Of a stretch of DNA of 64,000 nucleotides, positions 31,973 to 61,929 are shown in pieces. The notes under the pieces are model-generated. The model ran no database searches, was not told where the DNA came from, and saw nothing but the letters and a program-made list of their open reading frames with translations. The translations under genes and the position numbers were made by a program. The stretch spans positions 442,499 to 506,498 of the forward strand of contig JAKMXF010000066.1 in the NCBI GenBank assembly GCA_024704765.1, given 5' to 3'. Positions within the stretch are counted from its first letter, which is position 1, and each line of letters opens with the position of its first letter. Source of the stretch: Oopsacas minuta. Its lineage: Eukaryota > Animalia > Porifera.

Positions 31973-41532
<9,560 letters not shown>

Positions 41533-45700: not shown

Positions 45701-46098
45701 GTAATCCTTCTATCCACGTGTATTCATTCACGGGTATGCTGCTTAACCAATTAGGCTCTACTGTTAATAGCAATGAGTTACATTGTCCAGTGAGATTAGC
45801 TATTTCACAGTCAGGCCATATTGTTACAGTAGACAGGAGTAAGCCTTGTCTAGCAGTGTACGGATCAGATACTACTATTATGGTCCGTTTAGCCGGTATG
45901 TATAATGAAGTCTGGGGTGTTGCATTTAGTTCACAGAATAGATTATTCGTATGTGATGGAGATCACATAAAAGTGCTTAATTTACAGCCTTTTGAGTTGT
46001 TAGGTCGTACCAGACACTCCTCACTACCTGGGGATTCTAAACGTCATCTTACGGCTACATCTATTACAGGAAATTTTCCCTCTATTAGCGATGTTTGA
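42743..46098 (+). CDS. TRIM-NHL family E3 ligase-like protein (RING - B-box - coiled-coil - NHL repeats), about 4 exons
   Basis: Exon 1 (42743 to about 43090) is a RING: CPVCLKEFEDPVCLQCSHTVCRGCL...CPICQ. Exon 2 (about 43748-43933) is a B-box: GYCLECSVYLCQLDLKVHQK..H. Exon 3 (about 44212-44590) is a second B-box plus coiled-coil: YYCLTSQLLLCAQCKSSHNPNHN.... Exon 4 (44986-46098) carries six NHL repeats (FSPYAIDVKNQGIFVLVSGTANLIIVF..., TPIGLATTVEGHLIVADSRNNRLQVF...). Exon ends are approximate. Confidence 0.8.
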
Positions 46099-46515
46099 AT
46101 ATTATCTCAACAATGAATTTACTGTATTAACATTTCAATAGCTTATCTTGTATTATCTATCTTATATTATTTTTCCTCTTCATCGCGATTAACTTTGACT
46201 GATAGTATCTTTCTACTTATTCATTTTTTCCAATTTTTCAGAATTATATTATCCTGAATGAATTATTACTGTTATGACGAAAATGCTTATTAGTTTATTT
46301 ATCCATGGATAGTGGATTTAGTTCATCTGCTTGAATGTGTTTTTGAATATTTTGAGGCAGTTCTCGCTTGATTGAACGGGATATTTCTATATTTTTATTG
46401 GCGAAAATGACCTTAATCCCACAATCCATGGTTAAAGAACATACTTTTTGTTTTCACAATAACCTTATTTCATATTATGTCTCTATCTATATTAGCATCT
46501 TATAGCGTTATTTGA

Positions 46516-47509
46516 ATGGATTTCGGAACAGGTGCAGCTCTCCCCGTATCCAAGCCTCCTCTAGCTAGACAATTCAACCCCTATACTTCCAATGGTGGTA
46601 CTATTCTAGCTCTGAGCGGAGAGGACTTCTCTCTGGTAGCTTCTGATACCCGACTAAGCGAGAGATTCAGGATTCATACTAGGGATCAGCCTAAGACCTA
46701 TAAACTCACAGACAATGTTGTTTTAGGTACAAATATACGTAATACCTATATTCTTTTGCTTCGTGATATTGTACGACTACCAACTCCTGTTATATCGAAG
46801 ACGTAATTGTGTAAATATTGGCTCAAACTGTCAAAGTAACAAATTTTATTGGTTATATCGAATTCAGCTTATATCAAAGTAATCATCGCGGTCCCTTAAG
46901 CTTTGATATAACGAGAATTTACTGTACTTTGAAGGTTTGAGACCATATTTGTACAATTTCATACTTCGATATTTTGTGTTTGATATAACAGGAGTTGAAT
47001 GTAGTTAATATCTAGGTTGTTGCGGATTTCATGGTGATGTCCTAACTCTGAATAAATTGCTAGCAGCTCGTATAAAGATGTACAAACACCAACATGACCA
47101 TGAAATATCATGTTCATCTCTAGCTCAGATGCTATCTACTATTCTATACTCCAGACGCTTCTTCCCCTTCTACACTTACAATATTCTTATTGGGTTAGAT
47201 GAACAAGGTAAGGGATGTGTGTATAGCTTCGATCCTGTAGGATCTTATGAGAGGGAGACCTATAGAGCTGGGGGTACAGGGGCCTCTATGTTACAACCTC
47301 TGCTTGATAACCAGATAGGCTTCAAGCATCAGAATATTCCTGAGCAAGATAGACCAGAATTAACAGCTGATAGAGCTATAGCATTAGTGAGGGATGTGTT
47401 TATAGGAGCAGCTGAGAGGGATATCAATACAGGAGATGGATTGCATATGCAACTGGTAACCAAGGATGGTATCAAGACACTAGATAGGTTTCCTCTTAGG
47501 AAAGATTAG
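46516..47509 (+). CDS. PSMB1: Proteasome subunit beta type-1 (beta-6), 2 exons (46516-46732, 47018-47509)
   Basis: [52 protein letters not shown] | [29 protein letters not shown]...[45 protein letters not shown]...[15 protein letters not shown]... is collinear with human PSMB1. The GT donor at 46733 and AG acceptor at 47017 restore the frame. The intron contains MITE copies. Confidence 0.9.
46771..47003. mobile_element. MITE family A: one full copy (46771-46926) plus an adjacent partial copy (46927-47003), in the PSMB1 intron
   Basis: CAACTCCTGTTATATCGAAG...CGCGGTCCCTTAAGCTTTGATATAACGAGAATTTACTGTA followed by CTTTGAAGGTTTGAGACCATATTTGTACAATTTCATACTTCGATATTTTGTGTTTGATATAACAGGAGTTGAATGTA. Confidence 0.75.
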
Positions 47510-47576
47510 ATACTTGATTTATATGTGTGTTGCGTAGTATTGGAGGAGTAGAGCTTATATTTCGTAATAATTATAA

Positions 47577-47840
47577 TACACTTAACTCCCGTTATATCAA
47601 AGCTCAAGGGACCGCAATTATTACATACTTCGATATGACTGATAAAATTTAATACTTTGATATCCAGTCAGCTCTCCTTATAATCGAACACAGATTTATC
47701 GAAAATTCAAAATCACCCTTATATCTGCCCGAAATTGTACAGATATGACCCCAAACAGTAAAAGTCACATAAATTACATCGTCATATCATGTTATTTTTC
47801 GCTTTCCCTTGAATTGCGTTATAACAAGCAGTTGACTGTA
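47577..47840. mobile_element. MITE family A, expanded (about 260 bp) copy downstream of PSMB1
   Basis: CTTAACTCCCGTTATATCAAAGCTCAAGGGACCGCAATTATTACATACTTCGATATGACTG ... GAAATTGTACAGATATGACCCCAAACAGTAAAAGTCAC ... GTTATAACAAGCAGTTGACTGTA. Confidence 0.65.
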
Positions 47841-47913
47841 CATAATCACCAGCTTATGACTATTGTTTGATATTTCATTACTTAATGAATGACACAATAA
47901 AGTATAATTTAGC

Positions 47914-49115
47914 ATGGCTACTAGTTATCACATGGAAGCACTACGAAGACAACGAGTCATAGAGCGAGCCGTTGCTGCTCGCTCACGTATGGAGAAGGCT
48001 CAATTAGAAGCAGTTAGTGTTGAACCTCCCTCAGTGTCTCCCTCTCAAGCACTAGCTAATGGAGTAGCTGAGCCTGAATTAGCTAAACTATCTCAACAAT
48101 CTAATCGCTCTGCAACCAATAGTATATATACTCCTAGTGTAACTCATTCAGTGAGTAGAGCTAGTAATAGAACTGCCTCAAGTAAGTTATTTCGCGAAAA
48201 CATGCTTAATAGATATTTAACCATGTATCCGTGCTTTCATTTATCTGCTTTGATGTTGTTCTAGGTAATTTTAACGCACTCATGACTTGATTGGAGGGCG
48301 ATTTCTTTAGAACACAAATACCCGAATTCCACCATCAATGGTTAAATAGCTAATAAGGGGCTATTTTCGTCAAAACAATCCTTTCTATACTTTTGATTTC
48401 TGTTTATTATTTACGTTCTATACAAATGTGTATAGAACATTCATCTCAGCGATCTCGTCCATCTACTACTGCTACGCTAACTAAAGAGAATGTAGGAGAA
48501 GATAATCAAGTGATTTCATCCCGTCCTACTTCATCGCATGTTTCTAGAGCTGTATCAGCTAGCAGTAACAAGCAACAAGAGAAACAGGAATCTAAGAGTA
48601 ATCATGGATCTAAAGAACCAAGTAGGAATGAGAAGAGAGAAGATGTTGCTAGTGTGAAGAGTCGCGAGGGTTCTAAATTAAGCAACAGAGCAGTATCTAA
48701 TGCTTCTGAGAGGTTAGGATCCGCTGTGAATGCTGAGAGGGCTAAATCTGCTAATTTATCTCAAAAATCTTCAAAGAGGAATTCTCCTATCCGTGGTAAA
48801 TCCATTAATTCTAACTTATATTGTTATTTATACCAATCAAATAATTGCTATGCCTAATTATAGCCAATTCTGTTACTTTGACGTTTTGGGACCATATTTG
48901 AACAATTGTAAAGCTGGTATTTTCGATATATCCGTGTTAGATATAACATAAGTTGACTGTATTTATTTCATAACATTATATAGAGGAAGGAGCACAGCAT
49001 GAGGATACTAATAACAAGTCCTCTCGCCCCCCATCAGAAGCTAGATCAACATCCCATCACTCTTGCAGTGGATCTAATAAGCCTATAACTCATGACGAAC
49101 AAACATCTACATGAC
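47914..49115 (+). CDS. Serine-rich low-complexity protein (about 3 exons), function unknown
   Basis: Exon 1 47914 to about 48181 (MATSYHMEALRRQRVIERAVAARSRMEKAQLEA..., donor CAA|GTAAGT). Exon 2 about 48441-48791 (Ser/Lys/Arg-rich). Exon 3 about 48985-49115. No recognisable domain, so the gene model is tentative. Confidence 0.35.
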
Positions 49116-49308
49116 TATACAACTAATAGGATATACTATTATTATTGCTTTATACTTGGCTACCCTTTCACTAGTATATTATATTATTTATTGCTCACTG
49201 TCTTCTCGTCGTACTGTTTATGTTATTTTCGATTAGATTATTATTATTGTATTTATGATATCTGTACTATATGAATCCGTATACCAATGAGGGTCTGCTG
49301 TTACCAAC

Positions 49309-49436
49309 CTACAGTCAACTGTTGTATCAAAGCTTAAGGGACCGCAATAGCCAATGAAATATATATACATGTTACTTTGACGGTTTGGCACCATATTTGT
49401 ACAATTTCAAATTTCGATATACCGGGAGTTGACTAT
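49309..49436. mobile_element. MITE family A copy between the Ser-rich gene and the EST1/SMG-like gene
   Basis: TACAGTCAACTGTTGTATCAAAGCTTAAGGGACCGCAATAGCC...GTTACTTTGACGGTTTGGCACCATATTTGTACAATTTCAAATTTCGATATACCGGGAGTTGACTATGG. Confidence 0.75.
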
Positions 49437-49513
49437 GGTTGTATTTCTATCCATTGTATAACAGTTACTATTATGCACTAGCGATCTAATTACTGATGTA
49501 AGGTAGCTCCTGT

Positions 49514-51691
49514 TTGAGATGTAGCATGAGTGAGAGCATATACGATCTAGCCAGAGAGGCTGAGCTCCTCAAATCCAATTTAAAACATCAACAAGAAGCC
49601 GCCTCCCCTCTTGACTGCTCCTGGACAACTAGACAGAGACTGGAGGATATTTACAGACAAATGCTATTAACGGATTTAAGCTTCTCGCTAGAGAATAGAA
49701 TAGAAGTTGATCTGTGGAATTGTGTGTTTAGAACTCAAATAAATTATCTACAGACTAATATCACTCATCAACAGGTAATTTTGTTATCATAGATTCCTTT
49801 GATAAATATAGATATTTTTAGTCCTATAAAACGTGATTTATTCGATATAAAGCGTAGTTAAATAATTCCATGAATTTTATGGTATTTTGGCGGTTTTGAG
49901 TCATACATTTAACTCCCGTTACATCGAACACGGATATATCAAAATTTGAAATTGTACAAATAATCAAATATGGTCCCAACTCCCAAACCAAAGTAAGATT
50001 ATATCCAAGTTCTTTATGAAAGTTTACTGTATTCTTGTTAGGGTACACAACGAGAAGAGACATTATCTAGCCTATATATATGTTTGGAAAGTACCTGTTG
50101 TTTCTATCATCAGCTGTTACAGAGCATATGCTATAAATATAATACTTCACTTCCTTCCTACCTTACTCCAGAGCAGATAGGAGTGTGTAGAAGATCAGTT
50201 AGTACTGTAACAGCTGGAGAAGATAATATACGAATTATAGGACAGGACTGTCTATTGAGGTTAGGAGATCTAGCTAGATATAGAGGGGAGTGTAACCTAG
50301 CTACCAAGTACTATAAGCAGGTTAGATTATTTTATTTACTCATAATTCAGTCACTATCTTAATTACATATTATAAGTAAGTATTCCCTTACTTAGGCATA
50401 TGATCTACTACCTGGCAAGAGCATAATATCTAATCAATTAGGACTCATAGCATCATCACAGGGTAACTTCTATAAAGCAGCATTCCACTACTCTCATTCT
50501 ATCATCAGTCACATTCCATTCTCCCCCAGTCGTAACAACCTAGAACAGATATTTGAGACTCACACTAGACAATTCCCAGATGAGATATCTGATTTATTAT
50601 CTTTCCAGACAGGATTCTTATACTTGTTATCTCTTCTGTATTTCTCTAAAGACCTTGCATTTCTTTCATTTCTACTTCCTAAACTCATGACAGCTCTCTC
50701 TTCCTTCTTACAGAAGGGAGAAGCTAAACACGAGTTTATTCTATGTACAGTGGGACTGTGTTTGTTTGCTTGTGTGATTAGTTACCAACCTTTGACTGGG
50801 CTAACACTTCATCAGGTAGTGCTTTATCCTTTCGTTGTAGTTAAATATTCTAATTTTAGAATTATTCTACTCAGTGAAACCTCCATAGACGTGGAAACAG
50901 TGTAGCATTCCCTAGTTTATGGAATTACACTTGTACACTTTCAATAGAGTACACTGTATTTTATTTCTATTATTATTTAGGCTACAGAATGTCTTACAGC
51001 AGAAGAACATCAGAAATGTAAACTATCTCTCATCTTGCTCTTAGAAACTACTTTAGTATTGCTATCAAACTCTCTATCTACTACATCCCATATGAATACC
51101 ATGCTACCATTCATTAACGCAACTCTCCATTGGTTAGCTACACACATACATCATATACCAGTAGATCAGCTGATCCAATTGCCTTCTCTTTGGCAGAGCT
51201 TAGCTAAGTTGTTGAATAGACTATCATTGAAATCTGGTTTTGAAACAAATATTGACGTCGCTCAGTGTTTAAGTGAGGAAATATCTTTAATCGAATTTCT
51301 ATCATACAAATATACACCCACTAACCTAACGAAATGTTCAAATGAAGAATTGTGTTTAGCTAAAATGATTTCTAATATTAAATCTATGACACAAAACAGC
51401 CAATGTAGTTTCCTCTCTCTCAATACACATGATGGTACATACAAACTAGTCTATACTTCTCCAACAGCTGATCAGCCTGTGGCAATAGAACATGACATTA
51501 TGACGTCACCTACTCTAAGCCCTCTCTTCGCTTCTCCACTGCTTAATAATTCTAACGACTGCTCTTTCTTTCCTAGTATATGGTCTGATACTCCTTATCA
51601 GCAGACTAGTCCACTGCTTACTACGCCTACTGTATCCTCCATAGATACTATTCAGTCCCTTTGGAACGCTTCAGACCCTGCTTCATCCTAA
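49514..51691 (+). CDS. EST1/SMG5-SMG7 family protein (14-3-3-like/TPR N-terminal domain), about 5 exons, no C-terminal PIN domain
   Basis: The exon at 50084-50330 reads FYHQLLQSICYKYNTSLPSYLTPEQ...CLLRLGDLARYRGECNLATKYYKQ, the conserved EST1/SMG7 'CL.HLGDIARYR...A..YY..A' signature. The following exon reads AYDLLPGKSIISNQLGLIASSQGNFYKAAFHYSHSI (SMG7-like 'G.PYNQLA.LA...' block). The C-terminal region is low-complexity and ends at 51691. Confidence 0.55.
49907..50031. mobile_element. MITE family A copy in an intron of the EST1/SMG-like gene
   Basis: TTAACTCCCGTTACATCGAACACGGATATATCAAAATTTGAAATTGTACAAATAATCAAATATGGTCCCAACTCCCAAACCAAAGTAAG...AAGTTTACTGTA. Confidence 0.7.
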
Positions 51692-51989
51692 AAGCTTTAT
51701 AATTGTTATATTTCTGTAATTAGATTAATGTAATTCGCTTTATTTCCTGCTTTGTTCATCGCTAAGATTGTTTCTGATTAAATAGTCATTTAAACAAAAC
51801 GAATGAAACTTTCAGAATGTTTTATATATTTTTAACACACTAGACCCTGATTAATACAAACACAGTTAATACGAACTCCAGATAAGCGAACACATTTTGA
51901 CCGTCCGTTCGAATTTGTATTTACGAGGTTCCACTGTATTTGGATAAAATCGCATGTCTACTTTAATATTTACATTTCTATTTACTTAA

Positions 51990-53207
51990 ATGTCTAGATT
52001 TATAGTTTATGAGATGCGAGATAATCTATTACTGATCCTTACTTCTCTTATCTTCACGACTGCTCTATCTACACAAGGCCCTAAGTTTAAATGTGAGCTA
52101 AATTATAAACACAGTACTGAAGGAGTTTACACTGTATACGACATAACTAATGGAATTATGCATGTAGCGAGTTTCGTTGGAGATCCTACCTTTATGATAT
52201 ATCGCACAAACAAATCTGATTCTCTGAAAATTCATTGCAACGAAAGTAAGCAAATAACAAATGTAGCTATCAGTAGTTATGAGTTGTTGTATGGATTTGT
52301 AATTAGGAATTTAATAGAGTTCAAAGTTCAAGGTTCAGGTGTAAATTTTAACCGGCAAAAGTTCGACAACAATACAGTTAACCTGTTCAACACAACATCT
52401 CTATCCAATTTGAAGTATAACATAACTAGTTTAGGTAAGAATTGTGACGAGACTGGGAAAATAACAGTATCTCTACAGCAAAAGAATATTAGTTCAAATT
52501 ACACACAAATGAATATTCTATTTAATTTCCAAGCTTACTCGAGTGAAGGGAGATTGATGAATCAACCTCGTTACGCGTACAGGGGTAATAATTCAGTGAT
52601 AGGTATTGTTATAAAGGATTATCAATACCATCTAACTAATACATCAAATCCTGCTAGCAGGCTAGCCCTAGAACTTGATTTCATACGGAATGATAAATCT
52701 CAGTTATTCTACTCCTCAGTATCTAATATAGATGATGAATACACACCAGCTGTATTCCTACAGAACACACTGTCACTACGACAAGGGGGCTATTACTACT
52801 GGAAGCCTATTGCGTATGTAGCTCAAGATAGAACAGTAGAGACTTCTATGATGGCTACTTACCTGAATGGTACTTATACTAACTCTACTGTTAAATTGAA
52901 TACTACAGGTTTTTACCATTATCTACAGGGTAATATTAATGCTAGTCTTGAGAGAGCATTTATGCTGTTTGGAACTGATGGCGATTCAACACTAAATGCT
53001 GATTATGTCTACTTCCGTATGGAGCTAGGACTAGGTACTCCACCCACTGATAGTATTTCTTTACCTCTGATTATTGCTATTGGGGTTGGATTTGGTCTCC
53101 CTGTGCTTGGACTACTGTTGGGGGTTGTTGGTATGTGTTTCTTTATGGCTTACAAATGCTGTTTCAGGAAAAGCACCAGAAATGCACGCTATGTAATGAT
53201 AAATTAG
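51990..53207 (+). CDS. Type-I membrane glycoprotein (signal peptide, about 20 N-glycosylation sequons, single C-terminal TM, short cytoplasmic tail), intronless, lineage-specific/unknown
   Basis: Hydrophobic N-terminus LLLILTSLIFTTALS. Many NxS/T sites (NKSD, NESK, NFNR, NNTV, NTTS, NITS, NISS, NYTQ, NNSV, NTSN, NGTY, NSTV, NTTG, NAS...). TM segment LPLIIAIGVGFGLPVLGLLLGVVGMCFFMAY followed by KCCFRKSTRNARYVMIN*. Confidence 0.5.
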   Translation: MSRFIVYEMRDNLLLILTSLIFTTALSTQGPKFKCELNYKHSTEGVYTVYDITNGIMHVASFVGDPTFMIYRTNKSDSLKIHCNESKQITNVAISSYELLYGFVIRNLIEFKVQGSGVNFNRQKFDNNTVNLFNTTSLSNLKYNITSLGKNCDETGKITVSLQQKNISSNYTQMNILFNFQAYSSEGRLMNQPRYAYRGNNSVIGIVIKDYQYHLTNTSNPASRLALELDFIRNDKSQLFYSSVSNIDDEYTPAVFLQNTLSLRQGGYYYWKPIAYVAQDRTVETSMMATYLNGTYTNSTVKLNTTGFYHYLQGNINASLERAFMLFGTDGDSTLNADYVYFRMELGLGTPPTDSISLPLIIAIGVGFGLPVLGLLLGVVGMCFFMAYKCCFRKSTRNARYVMIN

Positions 53208-53643: not shown

Positions 53644-56600
53644 TTGCTATTTGAAATGTCTAGAATATTCCTGTGTGGCTCTCGTTCAGTAGGAAAGACA
53701 ACTCTATGTAAAGATTGGTGTGAATGGAATAAAGAATATGTTCATATTAATGGAAATGACGTCACTAGTGAAGTAATGGATGCAAATAATATTAGTCGTG
53801 ATGATATTATTAATTCTTTGAATACAGAAGCTAAAGAGTTATATTACAATCTACAGAAGTATCTTTTTATTGAGCAAAACAAGAGAGAAGAATTGCTAAG
53901 TGATCGATTGTTCATATCTGATAGCGGACCAGATCCTCTTATTTATACTCACAAAGAAAGTAAGGATATGTCTTATAAATTGTATAAGCATGAAGATGTT
54001 ACGAATTGCTTCAATCTCTACCGCAAGAGTTTAATAGTTGTAGTAGCTCCTTTAGAAGATGACAGAGAACATAATTCTTATACAAAGGTATTGAGACATG
54101 TATTACAAGAGTGTGGTGTACCTTATATGTACCTGAGAGAGAGGGTTAGATCAAAAAGATTAGAAATACTTAAGATAGCAGCTATTAATGGGTGTGTCCT
54201 TATGCCATTGGATCAGTTAAAAGAACAGCAGTGTCTTGCTTACTACATGGACATAGGAACTGTGAAAAATCGCATATTTTGCTCTCCAATGTCTCTGCAA
54301 GATAATACAGCCTATATTCGTAAATTCATAATATATCCATATGAAATACAATTATCTATTCAATCAATGGACAGTACTAATCGTATGCTAGAGAGATATG
54401 GTATAGGTAATTTTGTATTACTTGAATTCCACTGGAAAGTTAGTGATAATGACATTAAAGATATTCTGGGTATAGGACTATATGTAGATGGTGATGAATA
54501 CCAGTTTATAGGTTGTAGCTCAGAGGAATTGAGGAGTAGGACTTGTTACCTTATGAAGGGAGATACTAATTACATTGATGCTGTATTGAGTGAGTGTGGA
54601 GATTTTTCTGGGGTAAACACGGTTGCTGAGAGGTTGAATAGGATAGGATACCTATTCTCAAAAGGTATAAATACAGGTGTAGCTATTAGCAATGACGAGT
54701 TTGAGGTTATTGAAGATGTCTCAAATGCTGGAAGGATATTCACTGATGGTTGTGGATTAATTGGATTGAATTTAGCTAAGAAATTGGCTATAGGTTCTAA
54801 TGTGGGTATAAACTCTCCAGATGATAATATTCCAGGTGTTTTTCAGATCAGATTCCAAGGGTACCAATGTGTTGTTATGAAGGCCCCAAAAGAAAACCAA
54901 GATTCTTTTCAGTTAAGAAATTCTATGTTGAAATATAATACTGGAACAAAGCCTTTTCCACATATCTGGATCTGCAACCATTCTCGTCCTAATTCATACG
55001 GCAATCTAAACAAACAGTTTATTATGTTACTATCTGGACGAGGGATAAGTGACAAAGTTTTCCTTACAAAACAAGATAGTTATTTCACTGCATTAGAGAA
55101 TATGTTAATCGATCCTAAATTCGCTATTAAACTTCTTAACTGGAAAAACTACACAGAACTAGCCGAAACAGTAGCTGCCTGTCCTTCTACCGAGGATATG
55201 CAACAGAACAAAGAAATACAAAACAAACTCAAATACCTCAAAAATACACTTGTAGAGAGAATTGACGAATTAGAAATTCCAGTTATTAACTCGCGATATA
55301 TGTTTGGTGTCTGTGATCCTAATCAGCTGTTAGAATACGGAGAATGTTTCGTTAGATACACATTGAATGATGAACTAAAAACACTACAGGCAGGAACTTC
55401 TGTGATTGTTGGGAAGAATCCTTGTTATCATCTCGAAGATATTAGAGTTTTAATCACAGTAGATTATCCTGAATTGAATCATTTAGTTGATTGTATTGTA
55501 TTTCCTGTAAAAGGTGAGAGACCCCATACATCTGAGATTGCTGGTTCTAGTCTAGGTGAGGACCGGTATTTTGTGTGTTGGGACGATAATCTGATCCCTA
55601 AAGATGTACCAAAACCTTATAAATACCTTGAAATAGAACCTGATCGAGCTCAAAACATATCTCGTGAAAATATCATCGAGTTCTTCGCTGGTTGTATGAA
55701 TAATATGGATATGATTAATTCATATTATCAATATTGGGCAGATAAACTAGGAGCAGGTTGTAGAGCTTGTAGAGATCTGGCTCAGCTGTTATCCAGAGGT
55801 GTAGCTTCTACAACAACAGTTGATAAGTTACCATGTGATCCCAAACCTCACAGAAATAAAAATCTCACATCACACGGTGAAATGGTTTGGCATAAGATGA
55901 AGATAATAGCTCGTAGTAAAAGGAAGACGTTTACACTAGATACCATTGAAGATGCTCTGGTTAATACATGTTATGTCTCCTCTATTCCAGAAGACTTTAT
56001 GATAAGAATATTGAAGGATAAAGATAGGAGTATTCCTGAATACAAAATACTAATTACCTTATACAAATGGTGTAGGAGACTCAAATTAACTGACATTGAG
56101 ATAATTGATAAATTCATTGAGCTGTCCAGCTTTATAAACTTCGGTATTCTAACACTGAATGAGAGGATTGAAGCTATTAACCATGGCATACCAACTACTC
56201 ATGTAATGAACGCGTTATACAAGTCTAGAATACTCACTACAAAGATGTTACAGTCTCTGAAATTACCTTGTTATGGATGGGAATATTGCTTCAGAGAGAA
56301 GAGTAGTGATTTTGCCTGGAGCGATTTGTCTACTGCTATTACTAGTTTTACTGAATCTTTTATTATTCTTCAACTTGAAGAGTACATTTTAGCTTTCCAT
56401 ATTATTGGTACGATTCGACTAGGGGACTCTGTGTTACCGCCTGGAAGCCTGACGTCATATTTATTCTCTGGGGGACAAATGTTCAGATACGTAACAGAAT
56501 GTCATTATAATATTAATTTAGCTACAGAAGTAATACAATTTTATATCGAACATAAAGAGAATACATTTCTGTTTATGAAAAGATTCGGCAGAAGTTCTAA

Positions 56601-59600
56601 GAATGATTTTGAAGGTGTCAAATATGATATTATTAGTATTGAGTTGGATAAATTCAAAACTGAATCCTCTGGAAATTCCAAACATCCTCTAATACGGAAA
56701 AAGAACTTCCAAATGATTGAGGTATTCGTTAAGAATAAATTCCAGCAGGAGATCAGCTGCTCTTTAGATGCCAATTCCCATCCGACAGAGAACGAGCTGG
56801 AGGATCTGCTGAGTGAAGATAAAGACTGTTTCATTGAACTACAAACTCTACCTGATTCACCGTTATTAGCTATGAAGGAATTTGCTTGTAAAGGAGATGG
56901 TATAGGATTCTCTGGAGTACTACAACATATCAATGTATCTTCTATTAATAGTGTTATATTAATAGAACAATTCCTTATTCTTCTGTCAAATGTTATTGCT
57001 AAAATAGCACATAAATGTAGTTCGGAGTTACATACACAAGCATTGGAAGTCTATTGTAATCCTGGAGATCAAACTATTGAGCAAGAATGTTCGGAATTGC
57101 CAACACCATCAAGTATCTTCGAAATAGCTAGTACAGTTGATAATCAAGTTATTCATACGATAGGAGATAGCTATCATGATACAAATCCATTCGTTCATGA
57201 AGTAGAGCAGTACACACATGATAAGAAGTATAGTAGTAGAAATAGCGTAAGATTAACGGTACCATTAATAGAGGAAAATGGATCAGATCTAGACGCACAA
57301 CCAATGGAGGCTAAGAAATTATCTACAGAGTCACTTATACAGGAAACTGGACCAGAAGAACAAGTATCATCATTGGATAAGTTCAGTGAATCTTTATTAG
57401 AACCTGTAGCTGAAACACAAACAATTCGTAATGGTACTCAATCATCAGGTCTTGTTGTAAAGGAAGTTAGGTCAGAGATACTAATAGAAATCTCTGATAC
57501 AGAAAAAGCACTGGCTACTCCATTTGCCAAGGGAGATCAATCCGAAACACAAACAACTTGCAATGACATCCAATCCTCTAATACTGTTATACAGGAAAAT
57601 AAACCAGCATTACTAATAGAATTGTCTGATACAGAAATTACACCAGATAATACATTTGTACAATCAGATCAACCAAAAATTCAATCAATTTGTAGTGGCG
57701 GACAACCGTCAGAACCTGTTCTGAAAAATCCACCAAAAATACTTATAGAATTATCAGACACAAAAATTACCGCGGAAGATTTATATATCCAAGCAGCTCA
57801 ATCAGAAACACGAGCAATTTGTAATGATATCCATATCCAATCGTCAGAGCATGTTCTCCAGGAAAATATACCTGACTTACTAATTGAATTATCAGAAACA
57901 GAAATTACACCAGATAATACATTAGTACAGTCAGATCAACCAGAAATTCAATCAATTTGTTGTGAAGAACAACCGTCAGAGCCTGTTCTGGAAAATAAAC
58001 AAGAAATACATATGAAATTCTCAGATACGAAAATTACCGCGGATAATTCATATATACAGGCAGATCAATCCGAAACAAAACCAATTTGTAGTGATATCCA
58101 TATCCAATCGTCAGAGCATGTTATACAGGAAAATACACCTTTGTTGCTAATAGATACGTCAGTTTCAGAAATTACACAAGATAATCCAATTATCAACGCT
58201 GATGAACTAGAAATTCAAGAAACAATACAATCAATGGCAGTGATAGATGATCAACTTGTTAAAGCGACTGAATTACGAGATACATTCAAATCCTTGGAAG
58301 AGATATTGAATTCTCCTCATATAGAAATAACACAAGCAAGAGATATACTGCTTCTCTACAGTAGTCTCAGCAAATTACATCTTTATGACGTCATCAAACA
58401 GCATCTTTGCAAGTCAATCGATACAATTGAGATTCCAACAATAGCTCAGTATCTTGACTGTATTTCTAATTGGGAGTTGTGGACATTCCTTCCACTGTCA
58501 GTATCCAGTCAGCTGTCTAATCAGCTGTTTAAGTTATCTCTTAATCTTGACACTATACATACACCGGATCCTGAACATTTTGATGAAAAAGCTCCGAGTA
58601 TTCAGGATTTGTGTATGAAAAGTGGAGTACCTTCATTTGATCAAAACATACTGAATTATTACAGATGTTATTTCTCTCATTTAATACTAAACTCTCTTCT
58701 AAACGAGTCTATTGTAGAAGAAATGATTGAGAATTCTGATACTACATTGTGTATGTGGAGGATGGTTTATTGTCAAGAAGAAGAACGCCTGGATGATGAT
58801 GCTACTGCTAATCCATGTGAAATTAAGAAAAAATGTAAGGCATGCTTCTCTCCAACAAGCAAGATTATGACAGATAAATTCACATTAGGTTCTTATGTCA
58901 AAATCAGCTTTGTAGCTAGATCTACATCTTCTAACTCGAGTATGCCAATTGCACTAGGCTACATATCAACAGTATCAAATATTCTAGGTCGTATTACAGT
59001 AGAAATATTGGATCCTGTCCCTGATTGCCTAAAGAGAGCAGGTCGACTTGAGGTAGGCATATGGACTCTCACCTTGCTAGACAACATTACTACATTCAAG
59101 AATTGTACCAAAGCTCTACATAGCTTACACGAGAGTAAGATTATTTCTATATTAATACATCCTAAAGGGTTCCCTCCTCTTCTAGAGATAGCACAAGAAC
59201 ACAATTTAGACTATACATCTAAACAATCTCTACCTCCAGAAGAGATAGAAAATGTTTCGCATCCTTATGATGTATTCCCTAACTGTCAGGGTTGTAATAA
59301 TAGGATTAGCTTCAATGAGAGACAGGAAAATGCCATCATCTCCGCTCTCGGAGACTCCCTTACTCTGATACAGGGTCTGCCTGGTACTGGTAAGACTGTA
59401 GTAGCAGCAGAGATTGTACATCAGTTACGTCATCTGATTAGACTTAAAGATAGATGTGATACTGCTAAAATGCTAGTTACAGGTGTTACTAATATCACTG
59501 TGGATAATCTCACATATAAACTGTTGGATTTAGGGATGCTAGTGTTGCGTATTGGGGAGACTACCAAAGACCTACGTGAATACTCCTTAGAATATCAGCT

Positions 59601-60573
59601 GCAAATGAAAGGGATAGAACTACAAGAAAATGGAGAGTTTAAAGAAGAAGAAATAATCAATAAAATATTAAAATCAGCTGATATAATCGCTACAACATGT
59701 TCAAGAACAGGAGATAATATTCTGAAGAATATAACATTCCCTTATATACTAATCGACGATGCTACTCAAGTGATAGAACCTATATCATTAATTCCTATAG
59801 TCAAATCTTGTGAGAGGCTTATTCTCATAGGAGACCCACAACAACTAGTACCCAAGTTACCATATGAACCAGAGGGTGTGATTCCTCTAAATGCACTTCG
59901 TGTTACTCTATTCCACAGGTTACATGCTCAAATGGAGCCTCTTTCGCTAGTTGAACAGTATCGTATGCATCCTGCTATAGCTGAATTTCCTTCTAGATTA
60001 TTCTATTCTGGGAGATTGAGAACAGCAGTCAGCTGTTTGAATAGAACACCGCCTAATGTTAGGTTCCTCACTAAAGACAGACCTGTTACATTCTGTAATG
60101 TAGAATCAAGAGAAGAGGAAGCTGGAAGTTCTTGGAAGAATACAGGAGAAGCTAATAAAGTTGTAGAGATTATTAAAGAACTGATAGCTACTACAGAATA
60201 CAAAGTATCTGATATTGGAGTAATTACACTGTATGTCGGACAAGTTAAATGCATTAAAGATACGCTAGGTAGGATACAAGTAGATGTAGATACTATAGAC
60301 AGCTATAGAGGCAGGGAGAAGGAAGTAATTGTATTCAGCACTGTTCGGAACACAAAACACGGAGATATTAGTCTTATAGAAGATTTAAATACAATAAATG
60401 TGTTGTTAACAAGAGGAAGGCGAGCAATAATCGGAGTTGGTAACCCTATGACTCTGTCTAGATCTCATATCTGGAATGAATGGTACTATTTCTATTTTGA
60501 AGGAGACAATGAAGACGATAAACCGCCGCATGATGACGTCACTGAGGCTTCAGATTGGGCATGGGATGCTTGA
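53644..60573 (+). CDS. Giant intronless ORF (2309 aa): P-loop NTPase/kinase-like module + eukaryotic RDR-type RNA-dependent RNA polymerase-like domain (degenerate catalytic loop) + tandem 44-aa repeats + UPF1-like superfamily-1 RNA helicase
   Basis: One uninterrupted reading frame of 6.93 kb. It fuses four modules (see the individual domain features below for the motifs): an N-terminal P-loop NTPase module, an RDR-type RdRP-like core whose DxDGD loop reads SLGED, tandem repeats, and a C-terminal UPF1-like SF1 helicase. Confidence 0.85.
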   Translation: MLFEMSRIFLCGSRSVGKTTLCKDWCEWNKEYVHINGNDVTSEVMDANNISRDDIINSLNTEAKELYYNLQKYLFIEQNKREELLSDRLFISDSGPDPLIYTHKESKDMSYKLYKHEDVTNCFNLYRKSLIVVVAPLEDDREHNSYTKVLRHVLQECGVPYMYLRERVRSKRLEILKIAAINGCVLMPLDQLKEQQCLAYYMDIGTVKNRIFCSPMSLQDNTAYIRKFIIYPYEIQLSIQSMDSTNRMLERYGIGNFVLLEFHWKVSDNDIKDILGIGLYVDGDEYQFIGCSSEELRSRTCYLMKGDTNYIDAVLSECGDFSGVNTVAERLNRIGYLFSKGINTGVAISNDEFEVIEDVSNAGRIFTDGCGLIGLNLAKKLAIGSNVGINSPDDNIPGVFQIRFQGYQCVVMKAPKENQDSFQLRNSMLKYNTGTKPFPHIWICNHSRPNSYGNLNKQFIMLLSGRGISDKVFLTKQDSYFTALENMLIDPKFAIKLLNWKNYTELAETVAACPSTEDMQQNKEIQNKLKYLKNTLVERIDELEIPVINSRYMFGVCDPNQLLEYGECFVRYTLNDELKTLQAGTSVIVGKNPCYHLEDIRVLITVDYPELNHLVDCIVFPVKGERPHTSEIAGSSLGEDRYFVCWDDNLIPKDVPKPYKYLEIEPDRAQNISRENIIEFFAGCMNNMDMINSYYQYWADKLGAGCRACRDLAQLLSRGVASTTTVDKLPCDPKPHRNKNLTSHGEMVWHKMKIIARSKRKTFTLDTIEDALVNTCYVSSIPEDFMIRILKDKDRSIPEYKILITLYKWCRRLKLTDIEIIDKFIELSSFINFGILTLNERIEAINHGIPTTHVMNALYKSRILTTKMLQSLKLPCYGWEYCFREKSSDFAWSDLSTAITSFTESFIILQLEEYILAFHIIGTIRLGDSVLPPGSLTSYLFSGGQMFRYVTECHYNINLATEVIQFYIEHKENTFLFMKRFGRSSKNDFEGVKYDIISIELDKFKTESSGNSKHPLIRKKNFQMIEVFVKNKFQQEISCSLDANSHPTENELEDLLSEDKDCFIELQTLPDSPLLAMKEFACKGDGIGFSGVLQHINVSSINSVILIEQFLILLSNVIAKIAHKCSSELHTQALEVYCNPGDQTIEQECSELPTPSSIFEIASTVDNQVIHTIGDSYHDTNPFVHEVEQYTHDKKYSSRNSVRLTVPLIEENGSDLDAQPMEAKKLSTESLIQETGPEEQVSSLDKFSESLLEPVAETQTIRNGTQSSGLVVKEVRSEILIEISDTEKALATPFAKGDQSETQTTCNDIQSSNTVIQENKPALLIELSDTEITPDNTFVQSDQPKIQSICSGGQPSEPVLKNPPKILIELSDTKITAEDLYIQAAQSETRAICNDIHIQSSEHVLQENIPDLLIELSETEITPDNTLVQSDQPEIQSICCEEQPSEPVLENKQEIHMKFSDTKITADNSYIQADQSETKPICSDIHIQSSEHVIQENTPLLLIDTSVSEITQDNPIINADELEIQETIQSMAVIDDQLVKATELRDTFKSLEEILNSPHIEITQARDILLLYSSLSKLHLYDVIKQHLCKSIDTIEIPTIAQYLDCISNWELWTFLPLSVSSQLSNQLFKLSLNLDTIHTPDPEHFDEKAPSIQDLCMKSGVPSFDQNILNYYRCYFSHLILNSLLNESIVEEMIENSDTTLCMWRMVYCQEEERLDDDATANPCEIKKKCKACFSPTSKIMTDKFTLGSYVKISFVARSTSSNSSMPIALGYISTVSNILGRITVEILDPVPDCLKRAGRLEVGIWTLTLLDNITTFKNCTKALHSLHESKIISILIHPKGFPPLLEIAQEHNLDYTSKQSLPPEEIENVSHPYDVFPNCQGCNNRISFNERQENAIISALGDSLTLIQGLPGTGKTVVAAEIVHQLRHLIRLKDRCDTAKMLVTGVTNITVDNLTYKLLDLGMLVLRIGETTKDLREYSLEYQLQMKGIELQENGEFKEEEIINKILKSADIIATTCSRTGDNILKNITFPYILIDDATQVIEPISLIPIVKSCERLILIGDPQQLVPKLPYEPEGVIPLNALRVTLFHRLHAQMEPLSLVEQYRMHPAIAEFPSRLFYSGRLRTAVSCLNRTPPNVRFLTKDRPVTFCNVESREEEAGSSWKNTGEANKVVEIIKELIATTEYKVSDIGVITLYVGQVKCIKDTLGRIQVDVDTIDSYRGREKEVIVFSTVRNTKHGDISLIEDLNTINVLLTRGRRAIIGVGNPMTLSRSHIWNEWYYFYFEGDNEDDKPPHDDVTEASDWAWDA
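53656..54250 (+). other. N-terminal P-loop NTPase/kinase-like module of the giant ORF
   Basis: Walker A CGSRSVGKTTL at the N-terminus, Walker B-like hhhhD (LFISDSG), about 200 aa. The family is not assignable from sequence alone; nucleotide/polynucleotide kinase-like or AAA_28/AAA_33-like are possibilities. Confidence 0.5.
54400..55850 (+). other. RDR-family RNA-dependent RNA polymerase-like domain; catalytic loop DxDGD replaced by SLGED (55549-55563)
   Basis: VGKNPCYHLEDIRVLITVDYPELNHLVDCIVFPVKGERPHTSEIAGSSLGEDRYFVCWDDNLIP aligns position-for-position with the canonical cellular RdRP block '...NPC.HPGD.R.L.AV..P.L.H..DC.VFPQKG.RPH..E.SGSDLDGD.YFV.WD..L.P'. Confidence 0.8.
57475..58245 (+). 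repeat. In-frame tandem repeats (about 6 units of about 44 aa / about 132 nt, arranged as about 2.5 super-repeats of about 88 aa) inside the giant ORF
   Basis: Units read ILIEISDTEKALATPFAKGDQSETQTTCNDIQSSNTVIQENKPA / LLIELSDTEITPDNTFVQSDQPKIQSICSGGQPSEPVLKNPPKI / LIELSDTKITAEDLYIQAAQSETRAICNDIHIQSSEHVLQENIPD / LLIELSETEITPDNTLVQSDQPEIQSICCEEQPSEPVLENKQEI / HMKFSDTKITADNSYIQADQSETKPICSDIHIQSSEHVIQENTPL / LLIDTSVSEITQDNPI... Confidence 0.85.
58840..60450 (+). other. UPF1-like SF1 helicase domain (AAA_11/AAA_12-type) of the giant ORF, with a preceding beta-barrel-like N-terminal region
   Basis: Motif I LIQGLPGTGKTVV (about 59370-59410). Motif II ILIDDATQ (about 59745). Motif III LILIGDPQQL (about 59820). 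Motif IV-like QYRMHPAIAEFPSRLFYSG (about 59950). Motif V TIDSYRGREKEVIVFSTVR (about 60290). Motif VI VLLTRGRRAIIGVGN (about 60400). Confidence 0.8.
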
Positions 60574-60804: not shown

Positions 60805-61929
60805 CTACATTTGTTCTTCCTTCGCCATTCCCTTCATGAATGGCTCTCTGTTTTTATTTTGAAATTTCCTGACCATTTCATTGACAATTCCATCCTGACT
60901 TTCTGTGAAGTCTGATCTCGTTCTCATCTTTGGATTTTTAATCACGGTTTGTTGTCGCATGTAACAAGGAATATGTTGTAAAGAAGAGGCAATATCTTTG
61001 CTTTCATTTTCCATCAATAGGATATCCCTTTCTCTTGGATCACAGAATTTTATCGAGGACATATTGACATAATTATGATTCATTGCGCTGTTACCCATGA
61101 TAGGAGAATGTGGTGCACTCCTACTAAGCCGTATATTATCTGCTGCTGTATATGAGCTAGGCATATTCAGCCTGCAATATTCATTGGAGTCAAAAGCAAT
61201 TCTATAATCAATATCATTATCCGTTGCCTGATGTTCGTTATCATAAGTATATGCTCTATCCAGTTTATTTAATCTCCTAGAAGTGAATTGTCCAGTAGAT
61301 GGGCTACTTGTATTGATCTTGGTATTATATTGGTGTATACGTTCATAATCTTGTGATTGTGAATAGAAATTCGTGCTTCGTGACTTTTTAAGTTTGCCAG
61401 GTTCGAAATCAAAAGCTTGTTCACATAATGGAGTTACATCTGTGTCGATATAGTTCATAGAACTAGCTACACTCGGATTTGCATTTGTCAAGAGGTCTAA
61501 GTAGAAAGGCATAGTTCTCTCTGTTTGGTTACTAGTAACACAAATCTCCTCTGAATTCTGGATACACCACGTCATGTTTGCAATTTTACTGTGTTTATTG
61601 ATCTCGAATAATTTTACTGTTCTATCCCAGTGTATTTCAATGATAGGTTTTCTTGCTTGATTATACTGAATCTCAGATTCTATATTAGCCATTAATCTTT
61701 TCTTCGAGGAATACAAAGAGCTGTACTCTGATATTTCCTGATCCACATCGTGTTTGACCTTCTGTAATTTCGCGATATCTCTTTTCCACTCCCTCTCTAA
61801 TTTATCTATTTCATCGTATAATTGGTTTTGTATATTATTTAGAAGTCTACTAAACTCGATAAACTTATTCTTTACTACATCTCTAGCATTGTCAAAAGGA
61901 CAATACTCTGAATCTGTTCTATACTGCAT
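60805..61929 (-). CDS. Hypothetical protein (374 aa, intronless): N-terminal coiled-coil (about 100 aa), otherwise low-complexity Ser/Asn/Tyr-rich; no recognisable domain
   Basis: Long ORF convergent with the giant ORF (stops 232 bp apart). N-terminus LLNNIQNQLYDEIDKLEREWKRDIAKLQKVKHDVDQEISEY has a heptad-like pattern. Could be lineage-specific. Confidence 0.4.
   Translation of the reverse strand: MQYRTDSEYCPFDNARDVVKNKFIEFSRLLNNIQNQLYDEIDKLEREWKRDIAKLQKVKHDVDQEISEYSSLYSSKKRLMANIESEIQYNQARKPIIEIHWDRTVKLFEINKHSKIANMTWCIQNSEEICVTSNQTERTMPFYLDLLTNANPSVASSMNYIDTDVTPLCEQAFDFEPGKLKKSRSTNFYSQSQDYERIHQYNTKINTSSPSTGQFTSRRLNKLDRAYTYDNEHQATDNDIDYRIAFDSNEYCRLNMPSSYTAADNIRLSRSAPHSPIMGNSAMNHNYVNMSSIKFCDPRERDILLMENESKDIASSLQHIPCYMRQQTVIKNPKMRTRSDFTESQDGIVNEMVRKFQNKNREPFMKGMAKEEQM

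Follow-up and report, generated by a model that had tools for sequence, protein, structure and literature searches.

The window, a 64,000-nucleotide stretch of an Oopsacas minuta contig, carries on its plus strand a complete single-exon coding sequence of 2305 codons plus a stop (53656..60573). The open reading frame list gave this gene as 53644..60573 (plus strand, 2309 aa), but the TTG at 53644 is a start only under translation table 11 and the gene itself begins with the ATG at 53656. Its 2305-aa product is identical, over 100% coverage, to the NCBI protein "Regulator of nonsense transcripts 1 [Oopsacas minuta]", so the single long reading frame proposed in the first-pass annotation is real, and in sequence of 35% GC a stop-free run of 2305 codons is not attributable to chance. 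The GC content of the gene (0.34-0.36) equals that of its flanks and the rest of the window. The upstream neighbour is a GLMP/NCU-G1 lysosomal membrane protein gene (51990..53207, plus strand; Pfam PF15065, E=4.5e-42), which marks what we call locus A; the downstream neighbour is a 374-aa ORF on the minus strand (60805..61929) that has no Pfam match, and a tRNA scan of the window found none. The surrounding genes had been described as carrying many short introns, but those nearby (GLMP/NCU-G1, the minus-strand ORF, and the ASF1, NHL and Sel1 genes) are all long uninterrupted ORFs, and O. minuta averages only 1.59 introns per gene (PMC10280926).

From N- to C-terminus the protein comprises a NadR-like P-loop kinase fold, an RDR-type RNA-dependent RNA polymerase (RdRP), a TLDc-like domain, six repeats and a UPF1-like SF1 helicase; the two AF2 models that were made are both confident (pLDDT 83.4 and 88.3). 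The four modules recognised at first pass, P-loop NTPase, RdRP, repeats and UPF1-like helicase, are all present in the order claimed (Pfam, PDB and TRF searches), and that list was incomplete only in having missed the TLDc-like domain at residues ~876-1026. The N-terminal domain, residues 1-200 (53656..54255, plus strand), is NadR/AAA_28-like, with a nucleoside/nucleotide-kinase fold that in the AF2 model matches NadR, and it keeps the Walker A motif GSRSVGKT. The Arg of the family "ISDR" motif is replaced by Ser (ISDS), a ~13-residue "tDDGfRLvq" segment is deleted in P0001-P0004 (the window protein and its orthologues), and neither the catalytic Arg (DR/ERS-type motif) nor an Arg-containing lid is found in the module; from the TMPK and dNK families we take the lost ISDR Arg and the deleted segment to be the equivalents of the kinase DRx motif and lid. 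The Pfam AAA_28 score is 21.8 bits, under the cutoff of 27, whereas the paralogue P0013 reaches 35.4 bits and a match is found in all 14 relatives scanned (best E 2.2e-18). A search of PDB sequences with this domain gave only non-significant P-loop matches (Rab7) and no informative alignment, and the kinase assignment therefore rests on Pfam AAA_28 and the fold.

The RDR-type polymerase core spans residues ~215-740 (54298..55875, plus strand). Pfam RdRP PF05183 matches residues 231-720 of the 2309-aa ORF with E=2.2e-92 and 311 bits (cutoff 23.8), which confirms that the central region lies within the RDR family, and the AF2 model has the double-psi beta-barrel polymerase fold of RDR2 and QDE-1. 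The metal A catalytic loop is degenerate: DLDGD or DMDGD is kept by 98 of 103 family proteins, and the window protein has S632-L-G-E-D636 (55549..55563, plus strand), which aligns residue by residue with RDR2 D830-L-D832-G833-D834. Two of the three Asp of the catalytic triad (DbDGD) that makes up the metal A site are thus gone and the third is kept, and the loop Gly has become Glu, the equivalent of RDR2 G833E and RDR6 G866E, which are both loss-of-function alleles (PMC8713982). Other RDR motifs are also altered (GCKG to GYQC and LLGD to HLED), the loops of the orthologues P0002, P0003 and P0004 read HYGGD, HLDRD and HSDGD, respectively, and the SLGED loop is among the few low-pLDDT spots of the AF2 model. 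Essentiality has been demonstrated most often for the third Asp of the triad (PMC2896523), and since this residue is retained the protein may have some residual or altered RdRP activity. Judged from its sequence, the protein is an RDR homologue by descent and not a catalytically canonical member, and it has presumably lost enzymatic activity.

After the polymerase core comes a family-specific helical region, residues 744-870 (55885..56265, plus strand; AF2 secondary structure), which is possibly the equivalent of the RDR neck/head; a 427-aa query that includes it, the middle module of the family, matched only 52 clusters among 1.84 billion representative proteins. It is followed at residues ~876-1026 (56281..56733, plus strand) by a beta-rich domain whose AF2 model matches the TLDc fold, a fifth folded module that had not been annotated before and the best-conserved segment (64-67% identity) within the clade of degenerate proteins discussed below. 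TLDc domains, as in Oxr1, NCOA7, TBC1D24 and mEAK7, are otherwise known as a V-ATPase-binding module. Pfam did not report TLDc in the window protein or in the relatives scanned; at this region the family profile had three matches among PDB sequences, all of them TLDc but with E only ~1, and a literature search found no paper linking TLDc and RdRP. A hypervariable acidic linker then contains six tandem 43-46-aa units with the core [IL][LI]IE[LI]SDTE (57478..58218, plus strand), seen by TRF at 57530-58218 as repeats with periods of 267 nt (2.6 copies, 80% match) and 129 nt. The SDTE motif is absent from all other family proteins, the orthologues have different low-complexity sequence at this place, and the repeat expansion is on this comparison the sole O. 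minuta-specific part of the gene. The SDTE repeats resemble SUMO-interaction motifs and may act as such.

A second family-specific helical domain (residues ~1537-1690; 58264..58725, plus strand; AF2 model) precedes a complete UPF1-like SF1B helicase core (58744..60510, plus strand) that has a 1B-type beta-barrel at residues ~1697-1808 and then RecA1/RecA2 at ~1885-2285 (AF2 model of residues 1526-2305: pLDDT 88.3, pTM 0.90). Pfam finds AAA_11 (E=1.5e-36) and AAA_12 (E=1.2e-47), the best solved relatives in a PDB sequence search are Upf1/NAM7 (3e-53), and Foldseek aligns 670 columns of the model with the UPF1 helicase core (4.6e-40), with SETX, DNA2, IGHMBP2 and ZNFX1 next. Motifs I (GLPGTGKT), III, IV and VI (LTRGRR) are intact. 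Motif II, which is DEATQ in 90 of the 95 family members covering the site, is D2034-D-A-T-Q (59755..59769, plus strand), with Asp in place of the catalytic Glu, and motif V has YRGRE in place of the family's FQGRE; from these motifs the helicase likely binds ATP, but its ability to hydrolyse it is doubtful. The joint change in RdRP loop and helicase motif II has a parallel in an independent lineage, P0017, which pairs DLAGD with DDATL. A Pfam scan of the 2309 aa at E<=1 did not find the CH (Cys/His zinc-knuckle) UPF2-binding domain, and upstream of the helicase there are instead the kinase fold, RdRP, TLDc-like and helical domains; the protein is not a UPF1 orthologue, and its NCBI name is therefore a misannotation.

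Profile searches found ~100 co-linear RdRP plus AAA_11/12 proteins in sponges, Actinostola, diatoms, Branchiostoma and ascomycetes (98 at E<=1e-100 with matching domain order). A profile of the sponge members retrieves the Branchiostoma proteins with E=0.0 and the ascomycete ones with 7e-263 to 1e-232, as well as the diatom and Actinostola proteins, and alignments of the RdRP, TLDc-like and helicase regions have a coverage of 86-97% in the family proteins compared. By this co-linear, full-length homology the window protein belongs to the RdRP-SF1 helicase fusion family of the Fgrdrp5/BL02069 type. The first-pass view that this is not an established architecture does not hold in the face of ~100 co-linear homologues, and such fusions are in print for Fgrdrp5 (PMC11237814) and BL02069 (PMC6396948); a literature search found no description of sponge, cnidarian or diatom members.

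The GLMP gene also lies upstream of P0003, P0004, P0006 and P0069, and minus-strand genes of 322-340 aa occupy the equivalent downstream position in loci L001, L002, L005 and L008. Locus A is thus found in five assemblies, O. minuta and four others that carry positional orthologues, with a canonical gene there in two of them; a second locus, B, is found in two assemblies. Family genes are single ORFs at nine of the nine loci examined. The GLMP-flanked orthologues, the single ORFs and a GC content equal to that of the flanks all speak against the earlier suggestion of a lineage-specific, recently assembled or retro-acquired gene. Canonical and degenerate copies coexist (P0001 with P0013 in O. 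minuta, P0003 with P0005 in assembly ERZ25071281). In neighbour-joining trees, the only kind built for the family, the degenerate clade has 100% bootstrap support and groups with the canonical proteins P0005, P0006 and P0069 at 95%; the C-terminal family alignment was built from residue 1526 on. The first whole-family neighbour-joining tree had put the degenerate clade outside all canonical relatives, a placement that the stricter bootstrapped alignment and the synteny mark as a long-branch effect; in that tree branches are longer in the clade than in its canonical relatives, and the O. minuta protein has the same root-to-tip length as its orthologues. From similarity and synteny the clade is presumed to belong to a glass-sponge lineage.

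The gene is kept under purifying selection despite its eroded polymerase triad. Between two orthologues, L001 and L002, dN/dS is 0.28 overall at dS 0.41, and the folded domains range from 0.14 to 0.25 (RdRP 0.245, TLDc 0.16 and helicase 0.18). Between O. minuta and the orthologues dS is 1.5-1.7, near saturation, and constraint on the O. minuta branch is therefore less securely measured than that between L001 and L002.

We think it likely that the window gene is a conserved pseudo-polymerase paralogue with a non-catalytic role. The protein belongs to an old, conserved family whose members, of ~2000 aa, are made up of a NadR-like kinase fold, RDR, TLDc-like domain and UPF1-like helicase. The family would have been duplicated into two syntenic loci in the presumed glass-sponge lineage, the window gene being the GLMP-adjacent locus A copy. 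This copy lost the metal-binding Asp triad together with the kinase-module Arg and loop in a sub-lineage to which O. minuta belongs, and in O. minuta the helicase Walker-B Glu was lost additionally; the copy nevertheless stayed at full length and under purifying selection, with the canonical paralogue P0013 kept in O. minuta. The RDR cleft and the helicase were probably retained for binding or clamping RNA, and the TLDc domain and the acidic SDTE repeats probably as surfaces for protein interaction. We infer from this that the protein would be a scaffold or regulator: making no RNA of its own, it would serve the active paralogue as a partner or regulator without catalysis, or would compete with it.

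The first-pass annotation saw in this gene a candidate self-contained RNA-silencing or antiviral module. Read as an active amplifier, such a protein would use its helicase to prepare templates for copying by the RdRP, with support from the kinase module. All modules are indeed present, folded and co-linear, no catalytic motif is missing from the canonical family members, RDRs are known to partner with UPF1-like helicases (PMC11237814) and the third Asp of the triad survives, but we regard an active amplifier as improbable for the window protein, which retains just one of the three metal A Asp, carries the Gly to Glu change known to inactivate RDR2 and RDR6, and is altered in further RDR motifs and, by E to D, in helicase motif II. 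Moreover, the loop is eroded differently in each of the four orthologues, as is expected once catalysis is no longer selected, and RdRP-dependent small RNAs were not found even for an intact amphioxus member (PMC6396948). The self-contained module idea is plausible for the canonical paralogues. We also give a low probability to a neofunctionalised enzyme, in which the RDR fold would have taken on another chemistry or substrate, for example nucleotidyl transfer through another acidic cluster, with the helicase as an ATP-bound clamp. Such a change would fit the low dN/dS of the RdRP domain after loss of the triad, the presence in the loop of one Asp and a new Glu, and the parallel joint change in P0017; against it, the four orthologues have no common replacement motif (SLGED, HYGGD, HLDRD and HSDGD), and the AF2 model has low confidence at the loop.

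That the gene is a pseudogene in decay, or a relic of the canonical paralogue without function, might be suspected from the degenerate motifs in all three enzymatic modules, the species-specific repeat expansion in the linker and the longer branches of the clade. This is nonetheless quite unlikely, as the 2305-codon ORF is intact in a 35% GC genome, orthologues in three other clusters are intact too, the L001/L002 dN/dS values are low both overall and in the folded domains, members of the clade share 64-67% identity in the TLDc domain, the O. minuta root-to-tip length is the same as that of the orthologues and the two AF2 models have high confidence. That the long ORF is a chimera of neighbouring genes made in assembly or annotation, or was gained recently by retro-insertion or horizontal transfer, might be read from the very long intronless gene, the patchy distribution of the family (sponges, a cnidarian, diatoms, amphioxus and fungi) and the possible horizontal transfer noted for one RDR group (Pinzon et al., PMC6396948), but is extremely improbable when ~100 independent assemblies encode the co-linear protein, four others have orthologues with matching flanking genes, the GC content is that of the rest of the window, all nine family loci examined are single ORFs and the species is intron-poor (PMC10280926).

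There is some chance, although well short of an even one, that the canonical family is an ancient and unstudied single-polypeptide RNA-copying machine that the glass-sponge pseudo-polymerase paralogue regulates or targets through its TLDc domain and SDTE (SUMO-interaction-like) repeats. In that case the paralogue would be the first pseudoenzyme regulator within the animal RDR family. Conservation of the covalent fusion from sponges to fungi is "Rosetta-stone" evidence that both activities act on the same RNA. What goes beyond the published record is the TLDc-like domain in the family and the NadR-like kinase fold in many of its members, the family-specific middle module limited to ~50 protein clusters among 1.8 billion, and the eroded-triad glass-sponge paralogue still under purifying selection, which is a natural separation-of-function allele and could reveal the role of the non-catalytic parts. 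One survey recorded the sponge Amphimedon as lacking an RdRP (PMC6211395). In public databases the two O. minuta genes go under the wrong name "Regulator of nonsense transcripts 1", and sponge RdRPs are thereby hidden from surveys of animal RNAi.

Cooperation between RDRs and helicases has usually been studied in trans, as with Rdp1-Hrr1 and RDR6-SDE3. The full architecture is shared by canonical sponge paralogues, among them P0013 of O. minuta, P0043 of Dysidea avara and P0092 of Ephydatia muelleri, with 35-51% identity per domain; these paralogues keep DLDGD, GCKG, LLGD, DEATQ, FQGRE, ISDR and the kinase loop, and lack SDTE repeats. Fusarium graminearum Fgrdrp5 has an RdRP (PF05183) and then an SF1 helicase (DEXDc plus AAA_12/PF13087) in one polypeptide, the order also seen in the window protein, and its knockout affects ascospore discharge (PMC11237814). 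Fgrdrp5 itself is outside the sequences compared here, but ascomycete proteins P0114-P0119 match the family profile with E values of 7e-263 to 1e-232, and the ascomycete members examined align over the RdRP, TLDc-like region and helicase. The fungal proteins are ~1720 aa long, have no kinase-fold domain at the N-terminus and retain DLDGD and DE(A/S)SQ, whereas in the window protein the triad is degenerate and there are additional repeats. Similarly, Branchiostoma BL02069 was described as an RdRP that also has an AAA_12 domain (Pinzon et al. 2019, PMC6396948), and P0112 and P0113 of that genus have the same co-linear RdRP and UPF1-like helicase; unlike the window protein, the amphioxus proteins have an intact catalytic site and no kinase-fold N-terminus, and no RdRP-dependent siRNAs were detected in amphioxus (PMC6396948).

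More distant systems resemble single parts of the protein. Plant RDR2 and RDR6 and Neurospora QDE-1 are active stand-alone enzymes with no fused SF1 helicase, kinase fold or TLDc; relative to RDR2 the window protein lacks D830 and D832 and has the equivalent of the G833E null allele. The UPF1/NAM7 helicase core, including the 1B barrel, matches at 26% identity (Foldseek), but in the window protein it is the C-terminal third of an RdRP fusion and its motif II has DD rather than DE. Fusion of a helicase with an RDR is established in the DEAD-box helicase-RDR proteins of Dictyostelium, oomycetes, Hydra and Nematostella (PMC4791657), where the helicase is an N-terminal SF2 Dicer-like DEAD/Helicase_C module, in contrast to the C-terminal SF1 UPF1-like helicase here. 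Paramecium Rdr3, whose catalytic loop is highly divergent and which occurs alongside canonical paralogues, is required for both transgene-induced and endogenous siRNAs (PMC2896523). Like the window protein it is a divergent-loop RDR paralogue beside canonical ones, and unlike it Rdr3 has no helicase fusion and has a role established by experiment. Since Rdr3 is needed for siRNA accumulation in spite of its divergent loop, loss of the catalytic motif does not imply loss of a role in silencing.

The uninterrupted reading frame at 53644..60573 on the plus strand has a TTG start in the table-11 listing; its first ATG lies at 53656, and the 2305-amino-acid product from there, which opens with MSRIFLCGSRSVGKT, matches the NCBI protein 'Regulator of nonsense transcripts 1' of the glass sponge O. 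minuta residue for residue from end to end. Given a GC content of 0.34-0.36 over the gene and 0.30-0.37 throughout the window, a stop-free frame of 2305 codons is far beyond chance and bears no compositional mark of foreign origin. The single long ORF with the four elements described in the first-pass annotation (P-loop NTPase, RdRP core, tandem repeats and UPF1-like helicase) is real and lies where it was placed, according to Pfam, PDB sequence matches and Tandem Repeats Finder; the interpretation put on it there is supported in part. A Pfam scan of the ORF finds RdRP (PF05183, E=2.2e-92), AAA_11 (1.5e-36), AAA_12 (1.2e-47) and, weakly at the N-terminus, AAA_33 and AAA_28; the nearest solved structures are Arabidopsis RDR2 for the polymerase (6e-45) and Upf1/NAM7 for the helicase (3e-53). 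Two AlphaFold models built from a family alignment of 60 sequences are confident for residues 1-1200 (pLDDT 83.4, pTM 0.81) and 1526-2305 (pLDDT 88.3, pTM 0.90). The protein has a helical region at residues ~744-870 and, before the helicase, more helices, a disordered acidic linker that holds the repeats, and a family-specific helical domain, in that order. The helicase core, 1B barrel included, is complete and UPF1-type: Foldseek matches it to UPF1 at 4.6e-40 across 670 columns, with SETX, DNA2, IGHMBP2 and ZNFX1 ranking next. The TLDc assignment is strong at the level of the predicted fold and unproven at the sequence level, since Pfam reports no TLDc domain in the window protein or its relatives and the family profile gave only three hits among PDB sequences, all TLDc proteins, at E about 1.

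The tandem array (57530-58218) encodes six units of 43-46 amino acids, each with the core [IL][LI]IE[LI]SDTE. It is the sole species-specific part of the gene: the SDTE motif is absent from every other family protein compared, and at this point of the linker the orthologs have low-complexity sequence unrelated to it. Within 57478-58218 the units consist of a hydrophobic core followed by an acidic/phosphorylatable SDTE tail (ILIEISDTE, LLIELSDTE and similar), and presumably resemble SUMO-interaction motifs.

The catalytic loop DLDGD is found in 98 of the 103 aligned family proteins (once as DMDGD); the other five are the window protein (SLGED), its closest orthologs P0002 (HYGGD), P0003 (HLDRD) and P0004 (HSDGD), and P0017 (DLAGD). 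Aligned with the RDR2 chain, S632, G634, E635 and D636 of the window protein correspond to D830, D832, G833 and D834. The metal A site consists of three Asp, and RDR2 G833E and RDR6 G866E were recovered as loss-of-function alleles (PMC8713982); in a survey of 90 RDRs only one complete sequence deviated beyond DxDGD (PMC4791657). The conserved 'GCKG' and 'LLGD' have become GYQC and HLED in the window protein, and by spacing the Glu of HLED is probably equivalent to RDR6 G825, another loss-of-function site. Polymerase activity has very likely been lost. This is not proven, since the third Asp of the triad, the one most often tested (PMC2896523), is retained; that the protein is an active amplifier is nevertheless the less well supported reading. 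Its helicase motifs II and V read DDATQ and YRGRE (vs DEATQ and FQGRE), with motifs I, III, IV and VI preserved. In the kinase module of all four degenerate proteins ISDR has become ISDS and a ~13-residue 'tDDGfRLvq' segment is missing; if TMPK and dNK kinases are a guide, these may be the catalytic Arg and the lid. A neofunctionalised enzyme is likewise less well supported than a non-catalytic protein. P0017, in a lineage independent of P0001-P0004 (P0001 being the window protein), combines DLAGD with DDATL, a pairing that hints that constraint on the helicase ATPase may relax after polymerase death. The P0017 gene (L006 4001-10042, assembly ERZ20067936) represents a second degenerate lineage, in which 'GCKG' is GYTC and RdRP and helicase motif II have changed jointly, as in the window protein; that assembly also has canonical P0009.

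That the eroded gene is a pseudogene is less well supported than that it is maintained. For the closest pair of orthologs, with dS at 0.41, the Nei-Gojobori dN/dS is 0.28 overall; by domain it is 0.14 (kinase fold), 0.245 (RdRP), 0.16 (TLDc-like domain) and 0.18 (helicase). O. minuta gives 0.22-0.26 against its orthologs, at dS values close to saturation. Within the degenerate clade no segment is better conserved than the TLDc-like domain (64-67% identity). The window gene is a maintained gene with positional orthologs. The gene order NHL, EST1-like, GLMP/NCU-G1, family gene and a minus-strand gene of ~325-374 amino acids recurs in three assemblies, those of the window, P0003 (ERZ25071281) and P0004 (ERZ25069837). 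Two more assemblies have canonical genes at this GLMP-flanked locus (locus A), P0006 (ERZ25072740) and P0069 (ERZ25072730). Locus B has the order bZIP_Maf, family gene, 470-519-amino-acid gene, NIF, Amidase in two cases, canonical P0011 and P0007; P0007 and P0069 are in one assembly. In a bootstrapped NJ tree (1604 ungapped columns) the degenerate clade has 100% support and its grouping with P0005, P0006 and P0069 has 95%; a clade of the canonical O. minuta paralog P0013 and the locus-B genes has 100%. Synteny and tree together make the window gene a locus-A paralog, the catalytic loss having arisen within this clade. P0001-P0004 all have the kinase deletion and ISDS and all lack the first Asp, which argues for a single origin of degeneration, with later erosion proceeding independently. 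O. minuta has both a canonical and a degenerate copy (P0013 and P0001), as does ERZ25071281 (P0005 and P0003).

The upstream block (44986-53207 in the window, and at the P0003 and P0004 loci) comprises an NHL-repeat gene, (a proteasome subunit), an EST1/SMG5-7-like ORF (51035-51691; weak Pfam match, E=0.009) and GLMP/NCU-G1, its order kept in at least three assemblies. Canonical P0005 is at a non-syntenic locus adjoining a DDE_3 transposase ORF (L003 9940-10443), which suggests that this extra copy may derive from a transposon-associated duplication. The 374-amino-acid ORF at 60805-61929 on the minus strand has no Pfam match; it is probably a real, lineage-restricted gene, since positional counterparts of 322-340 amino acids occur in four other assemblies.

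The first-pass annotation had taken the lack of introns, together with the tandem repeats, to suggest a possibly recent or retro-acquired origin. The family gene is a single ORF at 9/9 loci examined, the mean in O. minuta is 1.59 introns per gene (PMC10280926) and the immediate neighbours are uninterrupted too, so the intronless state is not unusual and that origin is not upheld; a chimera or recent insertion is less well supported. Other long uninterrupted ORFs of the window encode a GPCR-like protein (GPR_Gpa2_C; 2944-3921, minus), a Sel1-repeat protein (5082-6242, plus), a complete ASF1 histone chaperone (29106-29837, plus) and a second NHL-repeat protein (39268-40866, minus); a 498-amino-acid ORF (7734-9230, plus) has no Pfam match, and a tRNA scan found no tRNA genes within the 64 kb.

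Nor is the architecture new, although the first-pass annotation did not know it as an established one. The window protein as query finds about 50 proteins of 1900-2100 amino acids sharing its domains, among them P0013 and one of the demosponge Dysidea avara, and a profile of 14 diverse members finds 98 at E<=1e-100, with Ephydatia muelleri, the sea anemone Actinostola, the diatoms Amphora and Seminavis, Branchiostoma lanceolatum and B. belcheri, and several ascomycetes represented. RdRP, TLDc-like region and helicase are alignable in all; the anemone, the diatoms and most of the sponge proteins also have the kinase fold, which amphioxus and fungi lack. A sizeable sponge subgroup (P0089-P0105, ~1770-1980 amino acids) is also without it and keeps all RdRP and helicase motifs, so this module is dispensable in some lineages. 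A search of 1.84 billion representative proteins with the family-specific middle module (residues 744-1170) gave just 52 clusters, almost all 1600-2400 amino acids long and matching at the same position. Databases and two papers already contain the RdRP-helicase fusion itself: F. graminearum Fgrdrp5 is RdRP + DEXDc + AAA (PF13087) and has a deletion phenotype (PMC11237814), and Branchiostoma BL02069 is an RdRP that also has an AAA_12 domain and whose active site is intact (PMC6396948). Fusions with an N-terminal DEAD-box helicase occur in Dictyostelium, oomycetes, Hydra and Nematostella (PMC4791657). In the literature searched we found no account of the members in sponges, cnidarians or diatoms, nor of the family's TLDc domain or kinase fold; the newly described features are the family's TLDc-like and NadR-like modules, its small size, the two-locus paralogy in this sponge lineage and the pseudo-polymerase state of P0001. 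The demosponge Amphimedon encodes no RdRP according to Calcino et al. 2018 (PMC6211395), whereas D. avara, E. muelleri and many sponge-type assemblies encode the family, so RdRP presence is patchy in Porifera. P0001 and P0013 are both called 'Regulator of nonsense transcripts 1' (UPF1) in NCBI and UniRef; we reject this identity, as both are RdRP fusions with no UPF1 CH domain, and because of the wrong name sponge RdRPs escape keyword surveys.

The window protein is a full-length, selectively maintained family member without the polymerase metal site, with a canonical paralog alongside it. It would not itself make RNA; the RDR cleft and the helicase would offer RNA-binding surfaces, the helicase probably binding ATP and hydrolysing it poorly, and its TLDc domain and acidic repeats would serve as protein-interaction surfaces. 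Such properties suggest that it partners, regulates or competes with the active paralog without catalysis of its own. In Paramecium, the RDR protein Rdr3 has a divergent catalytic loop and yet is required for siRNA accumulation.
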